From assembly GCF_055900595.2 (NCBI RefSeq), contig NZ_CM148325.1: a DNA stretch of 64,000 nucleotides; one strand, written 5' to 3'. Under the pieces are notes generated by a model. The model saw only the letters and a list, made by a program, of their open reading frames with translations. It was not told where the DNA came from and ran no database searches. The first letter of the stretch is position 1, and each line of letters starts with the position of its first letter. The translations under genes and the position numbers were made by a program. Below, one piece after another: positions 7,266 to 45,513 of the stretch.

Positions 7266-7565
7266 CTACGATGCAAGAATCCATACCAATAAGCATCCGA
7301 TAATTGGGAAAGAAAAATCCAACAAACTTCCCACATCCCACACGCGTGGATCAAAACCTCCCCACCACGGCATGTTGACACGTTTCCCTTTCCCAAACTT
7401 TTCTATCCAGCGATATTCTGCCTGGGTGTGTTCACGCGCAATGAAGAACGTACAACCGGCTATCGCACCGTAAGCCCAGTTTCCGGTAAAAATACCAACC
7501 AGTACCTGAGCCGCAAAAGCGCAAAGCGAGTGAAGAAATGGAGTGACATCAATGCTCTTAATCAT
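7266..7565 (-). CDS. Small predicted inner-membrane protein, function unknown (accessory gene)
   Basis: 99 aa with hydrophobic segments ([27 protein letters not shown]); start overlaps the tailspike stop (ATGA); last gene before the att site. Confidence 0.5.
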
Positions 7566-9619
7566 GAAACTTCCCCATTGGTTGAAAATATGGCTCCTCC
7601 AACTCCAAGTGTATTTCGTGTTGTGCTCAACCTAAGAGGGCTGGAGTCAGAATTAGAATATCCTGTAGCAGAAATAAAAGATCCTCCACTAATAGTCAAC
7701 TGCGGAACATCGGCTATATCTGAATAAGTTCTGTCAGCAACAGTATTATTTATAGCCACATGTGATCCAAAAAAACTTCTTATTGTTTGGTTTTTAACTT
7801 TACTTCCTTCAATGGTTATCCTACTACCACAGTCAGCAATAAATCCTGAATCTGCATCCAGCGTTGCATTCATAAAAGAAGCTTCAGATCTCTCTACATC
7901 AATCCATCTAATATCTTTTGTGGGATTTGCACCAAATACATGACAAATATTAGAGTTAAACCTTACACCATCTTGGAGGTGCATTAATTTTTTTATATCT
8001 GTACCCCATAGCCTTGGAAAATTAACAGATGCTCCTGCATGGCAATCAAATCCCAGCTCAACCCCTGAGATATCTACAGCCTTTCCGGAAATAACAGCAC
8101 CAGTGTCTGCATTAACGGCTGTTCCACAATTGCGCATATCATTACCAGCAACATCAACACAACCCGCACCATCAATACGCACACCAAGTGCACATCCATA
8201 AAAACCTTTTTCAATATTTGGTTCAAGGACTTTACCACTTGTTTCTGCATCACTTTCTTCAACGTCATGTCGTCTTGCATCAACATATGCTGTATGAATG
8301 CACGTTAATCCACGATATGAGCAATGTATAGTTTTATGGTCGCGTATATTAACATTTGAACCATCTCTTACATTCCATCCTATATAACAATAGCTTGCAC
8401 TTGACCCCTGAAAATCTGCTTTAACATTATAAATACAATTAACTGACGCAACCGTACTCTCTGTGCACCGTTCAAACTTACTTACAGGCATTGATGCCTT
8501 GACATTATTTACCAGTTGCAGGGAAGAGTATCTGCTATAAGAAAAATCACATACGTAATACCCTTCTGGCATATATGCAGCAACACTTTCCTCATCAGGA
8601 GCACATCCGGTATGATATGCACTAATTTTTGCACCAAAACTACCATGAATTCCAACGTAGAACTTTCGAGCACCTGAATACGGATAGAAATTAAGTTCAG
8701 CTTTTTGAGTTACAATAAATGCACAAACATCGCTATCATCTCTATTTTCTTCAATCTGAATAGCAAATACAGGACTTTTTGCTGCATCGCAAATGTAAAA
8801 TAAATATTTGTATTCGTAATACGTCCTAACAGTTTTAGTAAACAAACTGGTATCAGAGAAAACCACTGAGTCTTCTGATATTATTTTAATCCATGATAAG
8901 TCACATCCTGCTGAAATTTCTATTTGCTCATTGAGCACAAAACCGGAAAGAATTTTAATTATGCAAAAATCAATGCCATTTTTCCATAGTGGACGCAGTG
9001 CAACAGCTGAGTTTAGAGCATCACTAATAGATTTAAAATTACCATATTCCCCAACTGTTATTGTGAATGCATACCTGGAATTAAATACTGCGGCACTCTC
9101 TCCAGAGTTAATAGCTGCAGATATCATGTCATAATTTGATATAAAATCATTTGGCGTGATTATTTCTGCGTTTTTATTGTGCTGTGTTCTAAGTTTTGAA
9201 TTTACATGAACACTTTTAACTGCAATACGGGAGTCGTCAACAAGTATTTCATTACCCTCTGTTGCTAACTCTTGTCTTAACTGATCCGGGTCATACTTCA
9301 GCACATTCGGAAAATAGAACTGCTGCACACCGTACGCATCATAAACAGCCATAGAATGGCCCTGTACAGTAACGAATTTGGCAATCTGTCCGTTATATAC
9401 CGGATATCCAGCAGCGTTAATGATGATTGGTTGCGAAACAGGAACGTGAGATCCATCTTCGTTCTCTACATAAACCTGAATCTGGTTTTCAGGATTTACA
9501 GGGGCAGTATCAATTTTACCGATATAAATTTTGCCATTGGCTACGGCTTTAAAAGAACGCGCCATAGTGAAGAGTTGCGAAGGCATACTCACTACAACAT
9601 TGGCTGTAATGTCTGTCAT
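7562..9619 (-). CDS. Tailspike protein with P22 gp9-like N-terminal head-binding domain and a different receptor-binding domain
   Basis: N-terminus [38 protein letters not shown]...VLKYDPDQ matches the P22 tailspike head-binding domain as I recall it; remaining ~570 aa unrelated to P22 endorhamnosidase. Confidence 0.85.
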
Positions 9620-20460: not shown

Positions 20461-22662
20461 TTACTGCTGTGGTTGTTGCTGAGTTGATTTTTGCAGGATG
20501 CTGTTGATGTCCATGCGCTGCGCATGACCCTGTGCCTGACTTTTCAGGACAAGCTCTGCATCAGCACGGGCATTGTCTCCTTGCTGTTGCTGGAACTGTC
20601 CGAGCAGTTTCAGAGCCTCGCGGATATCAGATTTCTGCTGGCTATCGGCAGATGCGAGGATTTTCACAACATTTGCCGCTGCAACCTGAGCATCAGTCTG
20701 TGCCTGGAATGCTTTAACCTGAATGGCTGCCTGTTCGTTCTGCGCTTTCTGCAATTCAGCCTGACCAGCAAGAAGCTGACCTTGCGCTGCAACCATAGCC
20801 GGATCTGGCTGACTGGCCTGTTGTTGTTTCGCCTGTTCAACCATCTGCTGTTCTTCAGGCGTTCTCGGCTTGATAACGCCAGACAGAAGCAACTGATTGC
20901 GGTTGTATTCTTTCAGGTCGTCCATCCCTTCGCCGTCCATATTGTCGAGAATCATCGACGATACAAGGTCGTGCTTCGGAGTTCCTGGTGGGATAAGTGC
21001 CAGCATGGAAAGTAACGACTTAACCGTTGCATCACGGCGAGTAGCGAACGACTGGCCAACATCGACAGTCACTTCATAGTTACCCTGCGAAAGGTCATTA
21101 AGCGCGATAACCTGCCCTGTCTGACGGTCAACCACTTCACCAGTCATCAGCGCCACGTCATCGCTGCCGTCCTCATTAACGATACGCATCGGCGTATCAC
21201 TGCCATAGACTTCACGAGCCATAGAAAGCCACACGACGCCAGCACGGCGCATGGATTTAGCCATGTTGTCCATGTAGATATAGGACTGCGTGTCCATCCG
21301 GTTAAAGATGCTATCAACGGTATCGGTAGCGACGTTGCTCGGCATGTTCTCAAGCTGCGACGCACCTGTAATTTGCTGAATAGCCGTTCCGGTGTACTGC
21401 AATAGCCCAGCAAGAGCAGGAGGCATTTGTGTCGGAGGTGTATAACTGCTGACCTGAGCCTGCGCAGTAATATCTCCGTTTTTGTTTTTCAGACTGACCA
21501 TCGGCAGGAACGCCGGGCGCTTTTTGTTGCGCTCCGCCCAATGAGTGGCAAGAGGACCAGGAATCATGTCAACATCAACTACAGGAATGCCATCGCCGCC
21601 AGCCTGAGTGGCGTTATCTGCAATCATGGAAACCATCAGGTTCTCAAGACGCTGTGCATCCATCGCTTTTGCTGCGTGGCCTTCGATTCGCTCCTGATTA
21701 TCAACAAATGATCGACGCCCATATACCGGGATGAGAGGAATATGTTCGCCCGGAATACGCTTCGGTTCTTCCAGCCATTCAGCGCCAGACAGAAGACCGC
21801 AATAAACTCTGCGTTTCTTCACTGTCCGCTCACCAATCAGTTCGAATGCGCCATCGGTCAGCTCGTCGACAATATCTTTGATTTGCTCTTCATCATAGAT
21901 TGCCGTTTCTCCGCTGACAGGGTTGCGCCATGCCGTGAGCTTCACCTTCTCTATGCGAACTTCGTAGTAGCGACCAACATAGATAGCATCAGGGGTTGAC
22001 CAGTCATATTGAGTGCCAGTGTCATCACGAGAAAGGCTTGCTGCGATGGAATCAGGGTATTCAGCCTCGAACGCTTTAGGCGTCATGGAGAACATTTCCA
22101 TAGCCCACATAGCATCAGAGCGGTCATATTGCTTGCTGTCCTGATCGAAGAAGACGCATGTCGCCGGGTCGTAAACAGGAAGAAGGCTGATGCGTCGCTG
22201 CTCGTTACTTGGGTCCATTTCATCTTCGTAATCGGCACACATGCGGAAACAACCGAATCCGCCCGTTACGGCATCATCAAATGCGTTATCACACGCTTCG
22301 CCACCGGATGTTTCCTGATAGTCAGCGCGGAATTTGCCGTTCATCTTTTCGGCTAACGCTTCCGATGCCTTATCGTCCTTCGGCCTGAATTTAACGCTTA
22401 TGCGATTCTGTCGATACTCGCCAATGATGCGATCACATTCACGGGCAATCTTATTCAGTTCAAAGCGCGGGTAATGCTCAAACCTTCCTTCATCAAATGA
22501 GTAACCAGCGTTTGTGCTGCCTTCCCACTGTGCGCCGGACACCCGGACGAAACGTTGAGCCTCAATAATCTGCTCTCGCATATCCTGCGTTGCTGACCAG
22601 GCATTATCAAAGTTGCACAGCACCTTGCGATGCCAGTAAGTCATCTTTCTATCATCAGCCAT
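20461..22662 (-). CDS. Portal protein, P22 gp1-like
   Basis: ~733 aa; Gln-rich C-terminal barrel (QQMVEQAKQQQASQPDPAMVAAQGQLLAGQAELQKAQNEQ); start taken at MADDRK, upstream ATG also possible. Confidence 0.8.
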   Translation of the reverse strand: MADDRKMTYWHRKVLCNFDNAWSATQDMREQIIEAQRFVRVSGAQWEGSTNAGYSFDEGRFEHYPRFELNKIARECDRIIGEYRQNRISVKFRPKDDKASEALAEKMNGKFRADYQETSGGEACDNAFDDAVTGGFGCFRMCADYEDEMDPSNEQRRISLLPVYDPATCVFFDQDSKQYDRSDAMWAMEMFSMTPKAFEAEYPDSIAASLSRDDTGTQYDWSTPDAIYVGRYYEVRIEKVKLTAWRNPVSGETAIYDEEQIKDIVDELTDGAFELIGERTVKKRRVYCGLLSGAEWLEEPKRIPGEHIPLIPVYGRRSFVDNQERIEGHAAKAMDAQRLENLMVSMIADNATQAGGDGIPVVDVDMIPGPLATHWAERNKKRPAFLPMVSLKNKNGDITAQAQVSSYTPPTQMPPALAGLLQYTGTAIQQITGASQLENMPSNVATDTVDSIFNRMDTQSYIYMDNMAKSMRRAGVVWLSMAREVYGSDTPMRIVNEDGSDDVALMTGEVVDRQTGQVIALNDLSQGNYEVTVDVGQSFATRRDATVKSLLSMLALIPPGTPKHDLVSSMILDNMDGEGMDDLKEYNRNQLLLSGVIKPRTPEEQQMVEQAKQQQASQPDPAMVAAQGQLLAGQAELQKAQNEQAAIQVKAFQAQTDAQVAAANVVKILASADSQQKSDIREALKLLGQFQQQQGDNARADAELVLKSQAQGHAQRMDINSILQKSTQQQPQQ

Positions 22663-24158
22663 CATCCAACTCCGCAAGGTATGTTGTAGCTTGAGTAATC
22701 AATCTCTTTAGGATCTTTGATGTCTCGCATCTGTATTGCATAACGCCTCATCATGTAGCCATAGCGAACAGCAGAAAGGATGTCGTCATTTAGCTTGACG
22801 ATCTTCCCGTTCTCATCGCGGTGATACAGGCGAAACTCTTCAAAGAATGGCTCGCAGGTGTTAAATACCTTGAAACGACCGTCGAGCATCATGTCGCGTA
22901 TCTCTGCTATCCCTGGTTCGACCGCATTACCTCCATCAGGCCATGTTGCATGATCTGGCAACATGTCGAACCCAGCGTCGGCGTATTGTTCCTTGAGCTG
23001 AGCGCCGCCTCCCTTTTCGTGCTGATGCCCGTCATGAGGCCAAGCCGTAGGGGTGTTTTTGCTCCATGCTTTAACAGCACTCCATGCCTCTGTCGCCTTC
23101 TTCTGTTTGGCCTTCCAGACGCGAGAAAGATAAATCACGTCCTCGTCTTTATCCCACCAAAGCTGGATATGTGCCTGTGGGTGATCCCATCCGAAGTCCA
23201 TTGCATTGATGACGTAGAAGTGATCAGGACACTCGAACGGCTGACACTTAATCGTCTCTTCCGGTATCTGGAAGATTCGACCGCTACCCATCGTAGGAAT
23301 ACCGCGAGCACGCGCCTCTCTCTCATGCTCGGGATAGGATGCGATGATTTGCTCTTTCTGCTCGTCGGTGTAGTGCTCAGCGTCATAGATGGTCATGTTG
23401 ACCACTTTCTGCGACTTGCTGGGATTCTTCAGGAACTTGGTAACAACGTCAGACATCCCCATCAGCGGGGTAAACGTCAGAATTGAGAATTGCCCGTATT
23501 TGTTGGTACGGGTAAGACCTTCGCCATAAATGCTGTATGGTGGCTCTTCGTCAAACCACACGCCGTGGATTGTGTCACCCTGCCAGCGAGCGCGGCCTTG
23601 CGAGTATGGTTTGAAGTAGCAGATTGAAATGCCATCTTCAACGCCATCGGCCGTGTGATGCTTAACCAGAAGATGATCAACAAGGTTCGGAAAGAAAGGA
23701 GACTTCTTCCAGCTAATGATGTCTTCTTTAGGTATGGAACCGTAGCCTGGCTCATCATTCTCTTCGATACGACCACACAGGATGCGTTGAGTCGTTTTGG
23801 TTACAGTCTCGTTTGTCTCGCCGCCAATCCAGAAGACAACAGGCTCATAGAAACGCTTACCTTTCCACTCACCGCCATATTTACCATCAGCAGGATAGCC
23901 TTTTGTGCCCGGATAACGCCCGGTAAGGTGAAACGCGACTTCAGCAGCACCAGTAAATGACTTACCAAGCTGGTTACCAGCCATAAAACATCGCTCTGGA
24001 TAGTCATGCCCGGCGTCGATGAACTCACGCTGTTTGCTGTATGGCGTAAATTCATATAGCAGGTGTGTGTTACGGTAGTTCTCTTCTTCTTCGAGTAGCT
24101 CGAGCAATTCGATTTGCTCTTCGTCGCTCAGGTTATCAAGAATCGCGTCCAGTTCCAC
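22662..24158 (-). CDS. Terminase large subunit (P22 gp2-like)
   Basis: 498 aa; [15 protein letters not shown] Walker-A-like ATPase motif. Confidence 0.85.
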
Positions 24159-35801: not shown

Positions 35802-37154
<1,353 letters not shown>

Positions 37155-37203
37155 TCCCCACCTCAATCTCGATAACCAAAAACAAACTATTTTTCATTTA
37201 AAA

Positions 37204-37271
37204 ACAATGGAGTTTGTTTTTCACGCCCCTTTTTACAATATTTCTTGTTTACAACATACAATCTTTCTTGT
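37204..37271. promoter_or_regulatory. Left operator oL (three 434-type sites) with pL
   Basis: ACAATGGAGTTTGT, ACAATATTTCTTGT, ACAATCTTTCTTGT upstream of N. Confidence 0.8.
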
Positions 37272-37331
37272 AATTTTAAGCCATCAGCAGGACGCACTGA
37301 CCACCATGAAGGTGAGGCTCTTAAAAATTAA

Positions 37332-37346
37332 GCCCTGAAGAAGGGC
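37332..37346 (+). promoter_or_regulatory. nutL boxB hairpin (boxA-like GCTCTTA just upstream)
   Basis: GCCCTGAAGAAGGGC preceded by GGCTCTTAAAAATTAA, as in lambda nutL. Confidence 0.8.
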
Positions 37347-37544
37347 AGCATTCAAAGCAGAAGGCTTTGGGATTGGATGAATGAGCAGGCTGATGCTCGA
37401 CCAATGTATAAACAGCGCTCATGGCAAGCAGTAACCAATCTGCGCCTCAAGACAGCGTCACTGGTAGTGCGGGCGCTCTAACCAGTAAGCCGGGGTTCAG
37501 CGCCGGCCATCCAATCACCAAAGCTAACTGACAGGAGAATCCAG

Positions 37545-37877
37545 ATGGATGCACAAACACGCCGCCGCGAACGTCGCGCAGAGAAACAGGCTCAATGGAA
37601 AGCAGCAAATCCCCTGTTGGTTGGGGTAAGCGCAAAACCAGTTAACCGCCCTATTCTCTCGCTGAATCGCAAACCGAAATCACGAGTAGAAAGCGCACTG
37701 AATCCGATAGACCTTACGGTGCTGGCTGAATACTACGAACAGATTGAAAGCAACCTGCAACGTATTGAGCGCAAGAATCAGCGCACATGGTACAGCAAGC
37801 CACGGAGTGAAATGGGTGTGACATGCTCAGGCCGCCAGAAGCAACGCGGAAAATCAATTCCGGCTTATTACGATTGA
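37545..37877 (+). CDS. N: Antiterminator N
   Basis: MDAQTRRRERRAEKQAQWKAANPLLVGVSAKPVNRPILSLNRKPKSRVESALNPIDLTVLAEY, arginine-rich motif; lambda N-like. Confidence 0.9.
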   Translation: MDAQTRRRERRAEKQAQWKAANPLLVGVSAKPVNRPILSLNRKPKSRVESALNPIDLTVLAEYYEQIESNLQRIERKNQRTWYSKPRSEMGVTCSGRQKQRGKSIPAYYD

Positions 37878-37885
37878 GGTGAGAT

Positions 37886-38137
37886 ATGGAATTTCATGAA
37901 AGTGCGATTTGTGATTTTCGCGCTAACGCAAATTCAGTAAAACCACAGCCAATTGCAGTTCTTTTTAAAACAATGGGAGCGTGGGCTGTTTTATGCTTCG
38001 CCTCTGACGACACTGATGCAAGAATGGCAATAGGCCAAGAGATGGAGATGGACCCGACAAACGATGAATTCATAATTTATGGCGCTCCATCTAATTACTT
38101 ACTTGATACCTGCAACATTTACAACAAGGCTGCCTGA
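37886..38137 (+). CDS. Hypothetical early protein (ral position)
   Basis: 83 aa ORF 8 bp after N, followed by a hairpin plus T-run terminator-like structure. Confidence 0.45.
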   Translation: MEFHESAICDFRANANSVKPQPIAVLFKTMGAWAVLCFASDDTDARMAIGQEMEMDPTNDEFIIYGAPSNYLLDTCNIYNKAA

Positions 38138-38196
38138 TGGTGGCCTTTATTTTTTTGCCGTAAATAATTTCATGATTATTACAATCAAGGTGATAT

Positions 38197-38385
38197 ATGA
38201 AACGTAAATTTGAAATTTGGTTGGATTCCGGAGCAAACATTCACTCTTGCAAAAAGACAGTTGTAACACTCGATGATCTTGGCTTATCCGAGAATGAGTG
38301 GAATGAAATGGATCAGGACGAAAAAGACGAAAACATGCGTGATGTAGCATTTGAAACGCTTGATTGGGGATGGAAGGAAATTTAA
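38197..38385 (+). CDS. Small acidic hypothetical protein
   Basis: 62 aa, very acidic (ENEWNEMDQDEKDENMRD); followed by hairpin GGCCGCATAGTCGGCC plus T-run. Confidence 0.45.
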   Translation: MKRKFEIWLDSGANIHSCKKTVVTLDDLGLSENEWNEMDQDEKDENMRDVAFETLDWGWKEI

Positions 38386-38624
38386 GTGATGGCCGCATAG
38401 TCGGCCTTTATTTTTGGCATAAACAACAGAATAAACACAGCACTGTGTATTCATTCCAACGAGTGAATACACGGAGCAATGTCGCTCGTAACTAAACAGG
38501 AGCCGACTTGTTCTGATTATTGGAAATCTTCTTTGCCCTCCGATGTGAGGGCTTTTTTATATGCATACCAATAACGCTTCACTCGAGGCGTTTTCGTTAT
38601 GCAATCAAACAGAAGGAGCATCCT

Positions 38625-38795
38625 ATGCAACAGTTCGCTATTGCAGGGGCGGCATCGGTTCGCCCTTTCAACCCGATTTTATCGGTACAGCATTCACGAA
38701 AAAATATTTTAACCGGAGCAGACTTTAAACAACCAAGAATGAAAAGTTTGCTCGAAAAGCTTTGGGATATTTTGAAACAACAAGGCCGTCCATGA
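38625..38795 (+). CDS. cIII-like small protein
   Basis: 56 aa from ATG after AGGAG: MQQFAIAGAASVRP...SLLEKLWDILKQQGRP, resembling the lambda cIII pattern. Confidence 0.5.
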   Translation: MQQFAIAGAASVRPFNPILSVQHSRKNILTGADFKQPRMKSLLEKLWDILKQQGRP

Positions 38796-38950
38796 GTTTT
38801 ACGGATAACTGGTCAGACGAAGAATTCATTCGTCAGATGAAAGAATTAATCGGTAACGAAGGAGATATTCATGTCACTTGCAACCACAGTGAAGGAGAGC
38901 AAGTTACAGAGACGCATGTACACGCAGAAAGCTCTCTGGTATCGCCATAA
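38792..38950 (+). CDS. Small hypothetical protein (start overlaps cIII-like stop)
   Basis: 52 aa MSFTDNWSDEEFIRQMKELIGNEGDIHVTCNHSEGEQ...; ATGA overlap. Confidence 0.35.
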   Translation: MSFTDNWSDEEFIRQMKELIGNEGDIHVTCNHSEGEQVTETHVHAESSLVSP

Positions 38951-39049
38951 TGGCGACCGCGAAGGAATGCGGGTATGCCTTAATTTGTCCCGAGTCGAAG
39001 TATTAAATCAGCGTTATTTCCTTGGGCCATGTCCATTCTGAGGTGATTT

Positions 39050-39757
39050 ATGGATTTGAATAAATTCGATGAGCCATTCAGCCCTGAAGATATCGAATGG
39101 CGAATACAGCAAAGCGGTAAAACACGCGATGGCAAAGTGTGGGCTATGGTGCTGGCTTATGTCACGAACCGGGCAATCATGAAACGCCTGGACGATGTTT
39201 GCGGCAAAGCAGGATGGCGCAATGAATACCGCGATATTCCCAACAACGGCGGAGTTGAATGCGGCATATCAATCAAGATTGATTCCGAATGGGTAACCAA
39301 ATGGGATGCCGCTGAAAACACGCAGGTAGAAGCCGTCAAAGGTGGTCGTTCCGGTGCAATGAAGCGCGCTGCCGTTCAGTGGGGAATCGGTCGGTATCTG
39401 TATAACCTTGAGGAAGGTTTTGCACAAACATCTCTCGATAAAAAGCAGGGATGGCACAGGGCAAAACTCAAGGATGGAACAGGATTTTACTGGCTCCCTC
39501 CATCGCTGCCGGGATGGGCAATCCCAGCATCAGATAACAAACCATCACCAGAAAATACCAACCAGAAATCTCCATCGGTTGACTGCGAACAAATCCTGAA
39601 AGACTTCAGCGATTATGCGTCAACAGAAACTGACAAGAAAAAACTCATCGAGCGTTATCAGCGTGACTGGCAATTAATGGCTGGCAACGAGGAGGCGCAG
39701 GCTAAATGCGTTCAGGTAATGAACATCAGAGTTAACGAACTAAAACAGGCGGCATAA
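39050..39757 (+). CDS. Single-strand annealing protein (Rad52/Sak-like recombinase)
   Basis: 235 aa in the recombination slot of the pL operon; architecture-based inference, not lambda Bet. Confidence 0.55.
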   Translation: MDLNKFDEPFSPEDIEWRIQQSGKTRDGKVWAMVLAYVTNRAIMKRLDDVCGKAGWRNEYRDIPNNGGVECGISIKIDSEWVTKWDAAENTQVEAVKGGRSGAMKRAAVQWGIGRYLYNLEEGFAQTSLDKKQGWHRAKLKDGTGFYWLPPSLPGWAIPASDNKPSPENTNQKSPSVDCEQILKDFSDYASTETDKKKLIERYQRDWQLMAGNEEAQAKCVQVMNIRVNELKQAA

Positions 39758-40225
39758 ATGTCTCACTTGGACGGAATTATTAAAAGATTCGAGTCCAGCT
39801 ACAAAGTTAATGAAACAACAGGTTGCTGGGAGTCTACCTATTCAAAAAACAAAGGAGGATACACAAAATTTGTAGCCTTTGGCGTAACAATGCTTTCTCA
39901 TCGGGTTGCTTTTGAGCTTTATCACTCCCCCATTCCATCTGGGAAGATGGTTTGCCACAAATGCGATAACCCATGCTGCGTTAATCCTGAACATCTCTTT
40001 TTAGGTAGCGCGCAAGAAAACATGGACGACAAGATAGCAAAAGGAAGGCATCGTGGAGCCAAGAAAGGTCATGCTCATCATGGTGCAAAATTAACAGAGT
40101 GGCAGGTTATAGAAATTAGGAAAAGACTCTCTGAAAAAGAGAGTCAGTACAAGATAGCAAAAGACATGGGTGTATCTCAATCAATTATAAGCAACATAAA
40201 AACTGGCAAGAGGTGGAGCAAATGA
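39758..40225 (+). CDS. HNH endonuclease
   Basis: 155 aa; [11 protein letters not shown]...[29 protein letters not shown]/zinc motif; inserted between annealing protein and SSB. Confidence 0.75.
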
Positions 40226-40728
40226 GTTCTCGCGGGATAAATAAGGTGATTATTCTTGGTCGGGTAGGACAAGACCCGGAAGTTCGATACTCACCATCAG
40301 GAACAGCGTTCGCTAACCTGACAATAGCCACGTCAGAACAATGGCGAGATAAAAATACTGGCGAGCAAAAGGAATTGACTGAATGGCATCGTGTTGCTGT
40401 ATCCGGGAAACTGGCTGAGGTCGTGGGGCAGTATGTGAAAAAAGGTGATCAGATTTATTTCGAGGGAATGCTGAGAACCAGAAAGTGGAAAGACCAGTCA
40501 GGGCAAGACCGTTACACAACCGAGGTTCATGTCGGAATTAATGGTGTGATGCAAATGCTTGGCGGCATTGGCGACAGCAAACAACAAGCATCCAGCAGGC
40601 AATCACAGAAGCCACAGCAGCAATCATCACCAGCACAACACAACGAACCTCCGATGGATTTTGACGACGATATACCCTTTGCACCAGTAACTCTCCCCTT
40701 CCCTCGTCACGCTATTCACGCAATTTAA
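40222..40728 (+). CDS. ssb: Single-stranded DNA-binding protein
   Basis: [48 protein letters not shown]...; OB-fold SSB signature and acidic DFDDDIPF tail motif. Confidence 0.85.
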
Positions 40729-40741
40729 TCAGGAGAAAATC

Positions 40742-41035
40742 ATGCCAGCGCCTCAGTATGGTGCGGATGACCCGCGCCGCTGTTCCGGCAATTCCGTATC
40801 GGAGGTGCTGGATAAATTCAGAAAAAACTACGACCTGATAATGTCGCTACCGCAGGAAACGAAAGAGGAAAAGGAATTTCGCCATTGTATATGGCTTGCA
40901 GAGAAAGAAGAACGCGAGCGAATTTACCAGACATCAATCCGACCATTCCGCAAAGCCACATATACCCACTTCCCTGAAATTGACCCGCGCCTGCGTAATT
41001 ACCGCTCACGCTATGGCGCTATCAGTAATGACTGA
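40742..41035 (+). CDS. Hypothetical early protein
   Basis: 97 aa ORF in operon context. Confidence 0.45.
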
Positions 41036-41045
41036 GGAATTTACC

Positions 41046-41210
41046 ATGAGAGGACTTGCATACAATCCCGGCATTCTTCCGGCAGAAATGATTATTCGCC
41101 AACGCGTAAAGCCAATGCCATCGAGAGAGGAATTGCTTAAGAGAAATTCTTTTCCATCAGTGTATCAAAACAAATATCTGAATGCAATGTGGCGGAGTGG
41201 GAAGAAATGA
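41046..41210 (+). CDS. Small hypothetical protein
   Basis: 54 aa from ATG after GAGGA; tight spacing. Confidence 0.3.
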
Positions 41211-41626
41211 AACAAATGTCACTAATTGAGATGGATGGATTTCTGAAAGGTAAATGCATCCCAAGTGATTTAAAGGTTAACGAAACAAACGCTGATTATC
41301 TGGTGCGTAAATTTGCTGAAGCGGAGGCCAAGTGCGCGGCGCTTGCGGCGGAGAATGAGCTGGCTCGTAAGGCAGTTCAGGCATTCTGCGATGTTGTTGG
41401 CGACAACACCGAGGTTATCGCTGAGGTGGTTGGGCGAGATGGCGTTCTGGTTATTTTGGAGGCCATGAAGGCAACAGGAAATATGCCAGCCACCGATGCT
41501 TTTCTGGCTGAAGTACGGGCGCAGGGTGTTGAATTGTTGCGCGAGCATCCTGCTATCCAGATTTGCTCTTTAACGCACGTATGCGACGAGTTCGCCGCCC
41601 AGCTTCGTCAGGGGGAAGCGGTATGA
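41207..41626 (+). CDS. Hypothetical early protein
   Basis: 139 aa, [16 protein letters not shown]..., overlapping starts/stops with neighbours. Confidence 0.45.
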
Positions 41627-41940
41627 GCATAGTTGATGATTCACATCTTACAGACGAAGTGGTTAACGCCGCTTTCGAAGGTACCAATTTCGGGCGCACT
41701 GATTTCCGCACCATTCTGGCAGAAACAGTTATGAAGCGTGCTGCTGGCTATCACTCTGGCTACACGGCAACGACTATCTGTATTCGCCTGGGATTGCTTG
41801 GCAAACACGATCGCCCGACAAAACTCGGCCTGACCTTCGCTTTCCATCACTACTACAGGCCATGCGTTCGCGAAGCGCTGATTTCGCATAACAGCCTTGA
41901 AGTATGGGCAAAACTTGGAGCACAGGAGTCCGCCAAATGA
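41623..41940 (+). CDS. Hypothetical early protein
   Basis: 105 aa, [20 protein letters not shown]...; ATGA overlap with upstream gene. Confidence 0.45.
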   Translation: MSIVDDSHLTDEVVNAAFEGTNFGRTDFRTILAETVMKRAAGYHSGYTATTICIRLGLLGKHDRPTKLGLTFAFHHYYRPCVREALISHNSLEVWAKLGAQESAK

Positions 41941-42224
41941 GCAACATCAACAAACAGGCGCTGATTGCAAAAATCAAAAAGCAGGCCGAAAGCTTCGACA
42001 CAGTGGTGTTGAGAGAGGATGAAGCTAACGCGCTGCTGGATGAGCTGGAAGCAGCAGAGAAGCGGATTGCTGAACTGGAAGCGCGGGAAATACTGCTCCC
42101 GGAACGTAGCAGCATGCTTCATCGAACAGATTTTCACGATGATTACCAAACGGTAATGGCATACAAAGTTTCTGAAGTCATCGATGCAATCCGCGCCGCT
42201 GGCATTCGTATCAAAGGAGAGTGA
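41937..42224 (+). CDS. Hypothetical coiled-coil protein
   Basis: 95 aa, MSNINKQALIAKIKKQAE...LDELEAAEKRIAELEAREI. Confidence 0.45.
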   Translation: MSNINKQALIAKIKKQAESFDTVVLREDEANALLDELEAAEKRIAELEAREILLPERSSMLHRTDFHDDYQTVMAYKVSEVIDAIRAAGIRIKGE

Positions 42225-44246: not shown

Positions 44247-44465
44247 ATGTACTTGACACTTCAGGAGTGGAACGCACGCCAGCGACGCCCAAGAAGCCTT
44301 GAAACAGTTCGTCGATGGGTACGCGAGTGCAGGATATTCCCTCCTCCGGTTAAGGATGGAAGAGAGTATCTGTTCCACGAATCAGCGGTAAAGGTTGACT
44401 TAAATCGACCAGTAACAGGTAGCCTTTTGAAGAGGATCAGAAATGGGAAGAAGGCGAAGTCATGA
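44247..44465 (+). CDS. xis: Excisionase Xis
   Basis: 72 aa MYLTLQEWNARQRRPRSLETVRRWVRECRIFPPPVKDGREYLFHESAVKVDLNRP, lambda Xis. Confidence 0.92.
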   Translation: MYLTLQEWNARQRRPRSLETVRRWVRECRIFPPPVKDGREYLFHESAVKVDLNRPVTGSLLKRIRNGKKAKS

Positions 44466-45513
44466 GCGCCGGGATTTACCCCCTAACCTTTATATAAGAA
44501 ACAATGGATATTACTGCTACAGGGACCCAAGGACGGGTAAAGAGTTTGGATTAGGCAGAGACAGGCGAATCGCAATCACTGAAGCCATACAGGCCAACAT
44601 TGAGTTATTTTCAGGACACAAACACAAGCCTCTGACAGCGAGAATCAACAGTGATAATTCCGTTACGTTACATTCATGGCTTGATCGCTACGAAAAAATC
44701 CTGGCCAGCAGAGGAATCAAGCAGAAGACACTCATAAATTACATGAGCAAAATTAAAGCAATAAGGAGGGGTCTGCCTGATGCTCCACTTGAAGACATCA
44801 CCACAAAAGAAATTGCGGCAATGCTCAATGGATACATAGACGAGGGCAAGGCGGCGTCAGCCAAGTTAATCAGATCAACACTGAGCGATGGATTCCGAGA
44901 GGCAATAGCTGAAGGCCATATAACAACAAACCCTGTCGCTGCCACTCGCGCAGCAAAATCAGAGGTAAGGAGATCAAGACTTACGGCTGACGAATACCTG
45001 AAAATTTATCAAGCAGCAGAATCATCACCATGTTGGCTCAGACTTGCAATGGAACTGGCTGTTGTTACCGGGCAACGAGTTGGTGATTTATGCGAAATGA
45101 AGTGGTCTGATATCGTAGATGGATATCTTTATGTCGAGCAAAGCAAAACAGGCGTAAAAATTGCCATCCCAACAGCATTGCATGTTGATGCTCTCGGAAT
45201 ATCAATGAAGGAAACACTTGATAAATGCAAAGAGATTCTTGGCGGAGAAACCATAATTGCATCTACTCGTCGCGAACCGCTTTCATCCGGCACAGTATCA
45301 AGGTATTTTATGCGCGCACGAAAAGCATCAGGTCTTTCCTTCGAAGGGGATCCGCCTACCTTTCACGAGTTGCGCAGTTTGTCTGCAAGACTCTATGAGA
45401 AGCAGATAAGCGATAAGTTTGCTCAACATCTTCTCGGGCATAAGTCGGACACCATGGCATCACAGTATCGTGATGACAGAGGCAGGGAGTGGGACAAAAT
45501 TGAAATCAAATAA
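44443..45513 (+). CDS. int: Tyrosine integrase Int
   Basis: 356 aa MGRRRSHERRDLPPNLYIRNNGYYCYRDPRTGKEFGLGRDRRIAITEAIQAN...; overlaps xis; catalytic R/HxxR/Y region (HELRSL...Y); lambda Int. Confidence 0.95.
   Translation: MGRRRSHERRDLPPNLYIRNNGYYCYRDPRTGKEFGLGRDRRIAITEAIQANIELFSGHKHKPLTARINSDNSVTLHSWLDRYEKILASRGIKQKTLINYMSKIKAIRRGLPDAPLEDITTKEIAAMLNGYIDEGKAASAKLIRSTLSDGFREAIAEGHITTNPVAATRAAKSEVRRSRLTADEYLKIYQAAESSPCWLRLAMELAVVTGQRVGDLCEMKWSDIVDGYLYVEQSKTGVKIAIPTALHVDALGISMKETLDKCKEILGGETIIASTRREPLSSGTVSRYFMRARKASGLSFEGDPPTFHELRSLSARLYEKQISDKFAQHLLGHKSDTMASQYRDDRGREWDKIEIK

Follow-up and report, generated by a model that had tools for sequence, protein, structure and literature searches.

The HNH gene that separates an annealing-protein gene from ssb in the prophage analysed here is probably a free-standing ('intronless') homing-endonuclease gene. 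It would belong to a lineage of gammaproteobacterial phages specialised on the 5' end of bacterial-type ssb. The open reading frame (ORF) encodes 155 aa and occupies positions 39758..40225 (+ strand) of the window, the stretch of 64,000 nucleotides that was analysed. A preliminary description of the locus had proposed a homing endonuclease that invaded an operon. Sequence comparison supports this proposal well. Sites that lack the gene are exact, the start of ssb beside it is recoded, a Vibrio phage retains a relic of the old start, the position is tied to ssb, the gene varies less than the sequence on either side, and the junctions around it are graded. Its coupling to the neighbouring genes, the purifying selection acting on it and its conserved position next to ssb fit a genuine component of the recombination module as well.

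Gene anatomy and protein architecture

The prophage is P22-like, as judged from profile matches to its parts. These include a P22-type portal gene (20464..22677), a terminase gene (22665..24158) and a tailspike head-binding domain (7565..9619), all on the - strand. The lambda-type N protein gene (37545..37877, + strand; Pfam N36, E 1.6e-26) encodes the arginine-rich N-terminal peptide of lambda N in a prophage that is otherwise P22-like. A DUF7167 ORF (38197..38385) lies between N and the recombination module. The module itself includes a gene for a Rad52/22-family single-strand annealing protein (39050..39757, + strand; Pfam Rad52_Rad22, E 5e-26; PHROG 1097, E 3.5e-130). Downstream of the HNH gene it continues with the presumed target gene, a bacterial-type ssb (40222..40728, + strand; Pfam SSB, E 1.7e-36; NCBIfam ssb), and with the anti-RecBCD gene abc2 (40742..41035, + strand; Pfam Anti-RecBCD_p2, E 4.9e-64). 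Both flanking genes had been correctly named in the preliminary description. The integrase gene int follows at 44443..45513 (+ strand), which places the HNH gene in the early-left operon, between N and int. A packaging-associated HNH protein like HK97 gp74 is ruled out, because the terminase and portal genes are not adjacent: they lie approximately 16 kb away on the opposite strand.

The ORF list and the raw sequence agree on a very compact arrangement, as first described. The TAA of the annealing gene (39755-39757) is followed with zero spacer by the HNH ATG at 39758, and the HNH stop (TGA, 40223-40225) overlaps the ssb ATG (40222-40224) in the tetranucleotide ATGA at 40222..40225. The HNH gene is a separate ORF with its own start and stop, outside any intron or intein, and an Rfam scan of 36000..42000 returned no group I intron or other RNA family at E <= 1. 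Immediately upstream of the gene there is no + strand sigma-70-like site that could serve as its own promoter, so the gene is presumably transcribed from the PL operon. Promoter-like sites in the HNH region are fewer than expected from shuffled sequence.

The protein combines an HNH core with a different kind of domain at its C-terminus. Pfam HNH_3 (PF13392) matches aa 48-89 at E 1.1e-13, its score of 51 bits exceeding the cut-off of 24.8, and three PHROG families named 'HNH endonuclease' (59, 1872 and 6254) match the ORF at E 1e-33 to 1e-30. This His-Me finger core (39899..40024, + strand) is also marked by invariant alignment columns and by a predicted beta-beta-alpha fold. In a 60-sequence alignment H67, C69, D70, C74, N76, H79 and N88 are invariant, and C66 and H48 are nearly so; individual members of this set would act in catalysis or as zinc ligands. 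The zinc-binding His-Me loop family of Pfam, zf-His_Me_endon, gives a weak, sub-threshold match. Towards the C-terminus, aa ~111-149 (40088..40204, + strand) form a putative three-helix, HTH-like DNA-binding region, to which point a weak Pfam HTH_38 match (E 0.0016, aa 111-146), matches to PHROG HTH families and the predicted helices. The preliminary description had expected a Pfam scan to bear on HNH and AP2 domains. The HNH domain was confirmed, whereas no AP2 domain was detected in the protein by Pfam at E <= 0.01, and the C-terminus matches HTH families in its place. Assignment to the AP2-associated (IPA-) HNH class of homing endonucleases is therefore rejected.

An AlphaFold2 model built from the same 60 sequences has a mean pLDDT of 90.3. 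It predicts an N-terminal beta region, a core of two beta strands (64-67 and 80-83) and a helix (85-94) at high pLDDT, and C-terminal helices at 114-125, 130-137 and 141-149. A Foldseek search of the PDB with this model places I-HmuI (1u3e, E 7.5e-4) and I-PpoI on top; the match to I-HmuI is global yet loose (TM 0.38, rmsd 13 A). A sequence search of the PDB returned nothing significant, the best match (E 0.038) being a designed protein. Membership of a defence system was considered and rejected: 'homing endonuclease' is the sole real match in PADLOC, accompanied by a weak HTH match, and NCBIfam gives no meaningful match. The RefSeq annotation is already the generic 'HNH endonuclease'.

Empty sites and the recoded start of ssb

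Relatives without the gene define the inserted segment precisely. A query of 1681 bp, running from the Rad52 gene through ssb, matched 93 phage records, none of which contains the HNH gene. Alignment with HK75, Huey and Sf6 shows that a net segment of 464 bp (39758..40221, + strand) is missing, the span measuring 1217 bp against 1681 bp in the window. Both flanks are 98.8-98.9% identical in HK75, mEp235 and mEpX2, and their span is exactly 464 bp shorter. Flanks of epsilon34 and g341c are ~90.7% identical and the span is shorter by the same 464 bp. In all five phages the TAA of the annealing gene is followed directly by the ssb ATG. The closest protein in any deposited phage genome is 62% identical.

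Complete E. coli genomes give the same picture on a larger scale. The Rad52-SSB module is found in 419 of them, 37 with the full-length occupied form. Such relatives had been proposed as a comparison in the preliminary description, which named a conserved, non-mobile module component as the finding that would speak against mobility. The opposite was observed: the exact absence seen in HK75, mEp235 and mEpX2 extends to ~380 of the 419 E. coli modules, so that the gene is missing from ~90% of the same modules. HNH DNA occurs in 40 of 5426 complete E. coli genomes, always at a nucleotide identity of at least 99%, and the copy adjoins ssb in every E. coli match listed. A chance ORF is ruled out by these near-identical copies, by the Pfam and PHROG scores and by the pattern of substitution. 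Between lineages synonymous sites are saturated (pS ~0.8) and pN is 0.19-0.33, from which it follows that the protein has been under purifying selection.

On its left, the insertion site borders on the last ~20 nt of the Rad52-type gene (AAACAGGCGGCATAA). This stretch is conserved in empty and occupied sites and in the group of homologues at 74% identity, behind Rad52-type and Erf-type genes alike. At occupied E. coli sites the left flank is always one Rad52-type allele, with 96-100% amino-acid identity. Several occupied sites in other genomes are surrounded by signs of decay. In one (L004, 1..2624) the Rad52 gene is cut short by an IS66-family element, 124 nt ahead of the HNH gene; in another (L009, 2294..2997) the Rad52 gene is frameshifted beside the occupied site; and in a third (L051, 1282..1868) the HNH copy lacks its first 100 nt, at a prophage rearrangement. 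In E. coli E2348/69 (NC_011601.1) the HNH gene occupies two sites, and the Rad52-SSB module is matched three times. If its third module is an intact empty site, target and endonuclease gene occur naturally in one cell.

The insertion is accompanied by a change in ssb itself. Occupied E. coli-type loci, the window included, have ATG AGT TCT CGC GGG ATA (MSSRGI) as ssb codons 1-6, where empty sites have ATG GCA AGC AGA GGC GTA (MASRGV). The longer starts read ATGAGTTCTCGCGGGATA in the occupied E. coli group and ATGGCAAGCAGAGGCGTA in the native form. Within codons 2-6, ten of the 15 bases differ between occupied and empty loci, and the only amino-acid changes are A2S and V6I. The sequence around these codons is ~99% identical between the two kinds of locus. 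HK75, Huey, Sf6, ES18 and a phi80-type prophage all have the same native 29-nt start, although their ssb genes otherwise diverge down to 66% protein identity. Precise removal of the HNH gene with a normal ssb start would leave TAAATGGCA.... The element-borne start (40222..40239, + strand) is a candidate immunity tract and lies at the presumed target position. Both the recoding and the split junction are seen at occupied sites, a pattern that self-immunity would lead one to expect.

As read from its sequence, the element supplies ssb with a new Shine-Dalgarno sequence, a new ATG and new first codons. The HNH ATG takes the position of the old ssb ATG and inherits the TAA-ATG coupling to the annealing gene. 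A Shine-Dalgarno-like AAGAGGTGGAG, read from the sequence at 40208..40218 (+ strand), lies in the last HNH codons, 3-11 nt before the new ssb ATG, and probably serves ssb. Its core, A(A/G)AGGTGG, is kept in the enterobacterial copies of 74% identity and in the Vibrio and Shewanella copies; L054 has AAGCGTTGGGG instead. Since the start signals of ssb lie inside the 3' end of the HNH gene, simple deletion of the element would remove them. The preliminary description spoke of a gene 'wedged' between its neighbours. This is accurate for the position, but a simple intergenic insertion is not what is found, because the original ssb start position was taken over and a new start supplied.

Distant relatives and mosaic junctions

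Attachment to ssb extends well beyond E. coli. All homologues of at least 60% identity whose neighbourhoods were examined overlap the start of ssb, and they do so behind five different upstream genes. The IMG/VR sequences L029-L034, with the clusters P0002 and P0003 named Cronobacter/Citrobacter, are 74% identical to the window protein, have a 4-nt overlap with ssb and follow a Rad52-type or an Erf-type single-strand annealing protein (SSAP) gene. Vibrio phage 1.079.O (62%, 4-nt overlap) has a Vibrio ERF gene upstream, a Shewanella algae homologue (60%, overlapping ssb) a gene for a 143-aa protein of no known function, and GCA_039558625.1 (L054; 60%, 4-nt overlap) an RdgC-like gene. The SSB N-terminus at the distant occupied loci is MSSRG, MSQRG or MGKG, as against the canonical MASRG. 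Homologues of 48% identity or less (L035-L046, P0021, P0023) are not adjacent to ssb, which limits the association to a clade of about 60% identity or more. The starts vary among these relatives. In L054 (2501..2995; P0009, 60% identical) the HNH ORF opens with MASKGNIK..., which gives the impression of an in-frame fusion to the native start of ssb, and the ssb downstream of the Shewanella copy (L052, 1602..1640) begins MGKGINK, one residue shorter. Each lineage has therefore remodelled the left junction of the element in its own way.

The Vibrio phages provide a second pair of occupied and empty sites. Phages 1.003.O and 1.067.O have no HNH gene and are ~95-96% identical to 1.079.O across the shared parts of ERF and ssb. 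In 1.079.O 14 nt from the very start of the native ssb (ATGGCATCACGCGG) persist as a relic ~60 nt upstream of the HNH ATG. The relic is followed by ~60 nt of unrelated sequence, the HNH ORF and a new ssb start, ATGAGTAGTAGAGGGATA, which corresponds to ATGGCATCACGCGGCGTT in the HNH-less relatives; homology with these resumes at AATAAAGTA. The relic of the native start places the insertion point within ssb codon 5 and identifies the event as an insertion and not a deletion. The Ser-Arg codons changed in opposite directions in the two systems, from TCA CGC to AGT AGA in Vibrio and from AGC AGA to TCT CGC in E. coli. In both, bases change maximally and the peptide is kept, as might be expected if selection had favoured a cleavage-resistant copy of the target. 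The two kinds of Vibrio phage differ also at the other end of ssb, where 1.079.O has an enterobacterial-like tail with an extension (L006, 3456..4043) and the HNH-less relatives end in NNEPPF (L048, 915..1400). The 3' part of the gene thus contains a second mosaic boundary.

Among 24 occupied E. coli-type loci, the HNH gene has a mean pairwise identity of 99.6%, compared with 93-95% for the adjoining Rad52 gene and 5' part of ssb and 89% further into ssb. Ungapped identity over the whole Rad52 gene is lowered by indels and by the frameshift in L009, and the figure means just that the flank is more variable than the HNH gene. Variable sites in the 24 HNH genes number about 10 synonymous to 3 non-synonymous. 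A single HNH allele is found on HK75-type and Sf6-type ssb and with various abc2 types, with or without a DnaQ-like gene. HK75-type and Sf6-type ssb are discriminated by 182 sites. L014 and L015 are Sf6-type from the first informative site (nt 29), that is, after 0 HK75-type sites; the switch occurs after 14 such sites in L022 and after 21 in L005, all with the same HNH allele. These three graded crossover points are compatible with the pattern that co-conversion tracts of variable length would produce. Ordinary recombination of a Rad52-plus-HNH block into different ssb alleles could also yield some of the mosaics, as the left flank in E. coli is always of the same Rad52 type. The suggestion in the preliminary description of a recombination hot spot that explains module exchange is thus borne out in part, namely in one HNH allele on different ssb alleles with graded crossovers.

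The 3' end of ssb is variable in its own right. In the window, the encoded protein continues for 15 aa past DDDIPF (40681..40728) according to a C-terminal comparison, and HK75, epsilon34 and phi80-type SSBs share such an extension. In Sf6, Huey and L005 the ssb gene stops after IPF and is followed by an ORF of 155-159 aa with the HNH-like pattern CxxC...HH...CxxCH (Sf6 gp26; L003, 2692..3171; L005, 3156..3635; L002, 2686..3153). Sf6 gp26 has no match in Pfam. It was considered as a homologue of the window protein and rejected: similarity is not detectable, and the two are distinct ORFs at separate sites, gp26 with an HNH motif of its own. The 3' end of ssb gives the appearance of another place where endonucleases insert, unrelated to the first, at which the ssb tail has been left fused to the invader. 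The gap between ssb and abc2, empty in the window (40729..40741), is filled in relatives by ES18 gp47, an HNH_3 protein (L047, 3218..3739), by an ORF of the Sf6 gp26 type or by an Rv2179c/DnaQ-like 3'-5' exonuclease gene (L008, 3980..4528). This slot holds variable cargo.

Proposed homing, its alternatives and known systems

From these patterns we infer that the protein is an active enzyme, where exactly it would cleave, that recoding confers immunity and that the gene homes. A life cycle can be proposed as follows. (i) The HNH gene would be expressed from the early-left (PL) operon after induction or infection. (ii) Its product would recognise the junction of annealing-gene stop and ssb start (...GGCGGCATAA ATGGCAAGCAGAGGCGTAAATAAGG...) in an HNH-less relative that is co-resident or co-infecting. 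(iii) This empty junction would be cut or nicked. (iv) In the repair the occupied allele would serve as the template, and the HNH gene would be copied along with more or less of the adjoining ssb sequence. (v) The occupied allele would be immune, as the insert splits the site and a recoded version replaces ssb codons 1-6. (vi) The element would lower its own cost and resist deletion by using the old ssb ATG position, by carrying the ssb Shine-Dalgarno sequence within it and by overlapping its stop with the ssb ATG. Such a cycle predicts HNH-less alleles that keep the recoded ssb start. No such allele came up when a synthetic 89-nt junction of this form (HNH-less, recoded start) was used as a BLAST query, a search that says little either way, because the halves of the query were joined across the HNH gene in occupied loci, and empty loci were aligned through mismatches.

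The principal alternative within the biology of the module is that the Rad52-SSB-Abc2 set includes the HNH protein as a functional nuclease, its gene not being a selfish element. The protein would provide the nicks or breaks that start recombination-dependent replication and be present in some variants, as Exo, RecE or DnaQ-like proteins are elsewhere. A 2025 survey of lambdoid Rec modules found some HNH genes mobile and considered tightly packed ones, such as that of ES18, likely to be legitimate members (PMC12315714). In favour of such a role, the window gene leaves no room between itself and its neighbours and is coupled to them in translation, purifying selection acts on it, and the copies of E. 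coli, Vibrio and Shewanella all keep the place beside ssb. Against this, ~90% of otherwise ~99% identical modules do without it, those of isolated phages HK75, mEp235 and mEpX2 among them. A core nuclease of the Exo/RecE kind is rejected on this count, because regular co-occurrence with the annealing protein is not observed. The gene is tied to the start of ssb and not to one annealing protein, as its five kinds of upstream neighbour show; its diversity is below that of its flanks, and the recoded ssb start and the Vibrio relic are left without explanation. Sporadic presence, attachment to ssb, recoded start and low diversity together argue against a core module role, and we consider this alternative quite unlikely. 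A homing gene may nevertheless bring its phage a secondary benefit through break-stimulated recombination.

A protein that cuts the start of ssb could also act mainly as a weapon, directed at competing phages (marker exclusion) or at the host, with its own spread as a by-product. The start of the K-12 host ssb (ATGGCCAGCAGAGGCGTAAACAAGGTT) matches the empty-site start at 24 of 27 bases (L050, 1126..1152, against L001, 2209..2235), otherwise divergent phage ssb alleles have the identical 29-nt start in common, and in T4 gene 32 is subject to marker exclusion by SegG (PMC2988022). Upstream of its ATG, however, the host ssb bears no relation to the phage junction, which makes recognition of the host site uncertain, and it is clearly the HNH gene itself that spreads; a weapon in the first place is very unlikely. 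That the gene is a remnant which has decayed or been domesticated is highly improbable. On this view its product would bind DNA through the HTH, the nuclease being dead, and the gene would be kept only because the ribosome-binding site and start of ssb lie inside it. The embedded Shine-Dalgarno sequence and ATG would disfavour deletion whether or not the enzyme is active, and truncated copies exist (L051, P0007). Yet every His-Me finger and zinc-ligand residue is invariant, non-synonymous change is strongly suppressed over the whole ORF, within E. coli and between lineages, and near-identical copies sit on different ssb and abc2 backgrounds. A broader version of the preferred reading, in which the lineage is an 'addictive start-codon replacer' that homes into the first five or six codons of bacterial-type ssb across phages of Enterobacterales, Vibrio and Shewanella, is unlikely on present evidence. 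Here loss of the element would silence ssb, and the protein may also cut the host ssb during lytic growth (host shutoff or competitor exclusion), a candidate role suggested by the 24 matching bases.

The proposed homing into the start of ssb has its closest counterpart in T4. The free-standing segG gene lies directly upstream of gene 32, which codes for the T4 SSB and is the target of SegG, and promoters of gene 32 are located within segG (PMC2988022). In both cases the endonuclease gene stands immediately upstream of the phage SSB gene that is its target, shown for SegG and presumed here. Both are promoter-less cassettes in an existing operon, and in both the coding sequence of the endonuclease contains signals for expression of the SSB gene that follows. 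Flanking markers are co-converted by SegG (PMC2988022), and the locus described here has a co-conversion-like sequence pattern. The two differ in family (GIY-YIG for SegG, HNH_3 in the window) and in the neighbouring protein, gp32 in T4 and a bacterial OB-fold SSB here. SegG, whose activity has been shown, cleaves away from its own gene, whereas the window protein is a putative enzyme whose gene is inserted where its presumed target lies, in the first codons of ssb, and brings along a recoded start.

Other comparisons concern the protein. The predicted model resembles I-HmuI in its N-terminal beta region, beta-beta-alpha-metal core and helical C-terminal HTH, and I-PpoI in its zinc-binding loop, as indicated by the weak zf-His_Me_endon match. 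I-HmuI is a nicking enzyme. Both of these enzymes are encoded in group I introns, unlike the free-standing window gene, and identity to them is just 16-24%. Further parallels are T4 MobE and proteins like ES18 gp47 and T7 gp7.7, in which an HNH domain is joined to a distinct C-terminal DNA-binding region and whose free-standing genes stand beside essential genes of DNA metabolism (PMC2988022). ES18 gp47 is 35% identical to the window protein, with the same architecture and in the same recombination module, but it is located between ssb and abc2. MobE targets nrdB, unlike the window lineage with its tie to the ssb start. The IPA-HNH genes of ICP1 and other phages cluster near essential genes and mark boundaries of genetic exchange (PMC10448857). 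They too are homing-endonuclease genes of the HNH superfamily, but the window protein has an HTH and no detectable AP2 domain. No description of an ssb-start-specific HNH lineage with a recoded replacement start was found in the literature searched.

The HNH gene is probably a selfish element, of a clear yet ordinary kind. In its sporadic but exact presence, its own ORF and its co-conversion-like flanks it appears, at the level of sequence, as homing genes do elsewhere. Free-standing homing endonucleases are well known in T4-like phages and in ICP1, and are little characterised in temperate lambdoid or P22-like phages. The practical consequence is modest: annotation of Rad52-SSB modules, and recombineering with them, should not count the window HNH gene as recombination machinery. 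The locus is an unusually clean natural series of exact empty sites, recoded target, old-start relic and graded crossovers. This series is relevant to the question of whether the HNH genes of lambdoid recombination modules truly belong to them (cf. PMC12315714), and it argues that the window gene, at least, invaded as a selfish element directed at the conserved start of ssb. It offers a concrete candidate target sequence, along with an explanation for the mosaic junctions inside ssb of P22-like prophages, and shows how a selfish element can reorganise the signals for translation of an essential gene next to it.
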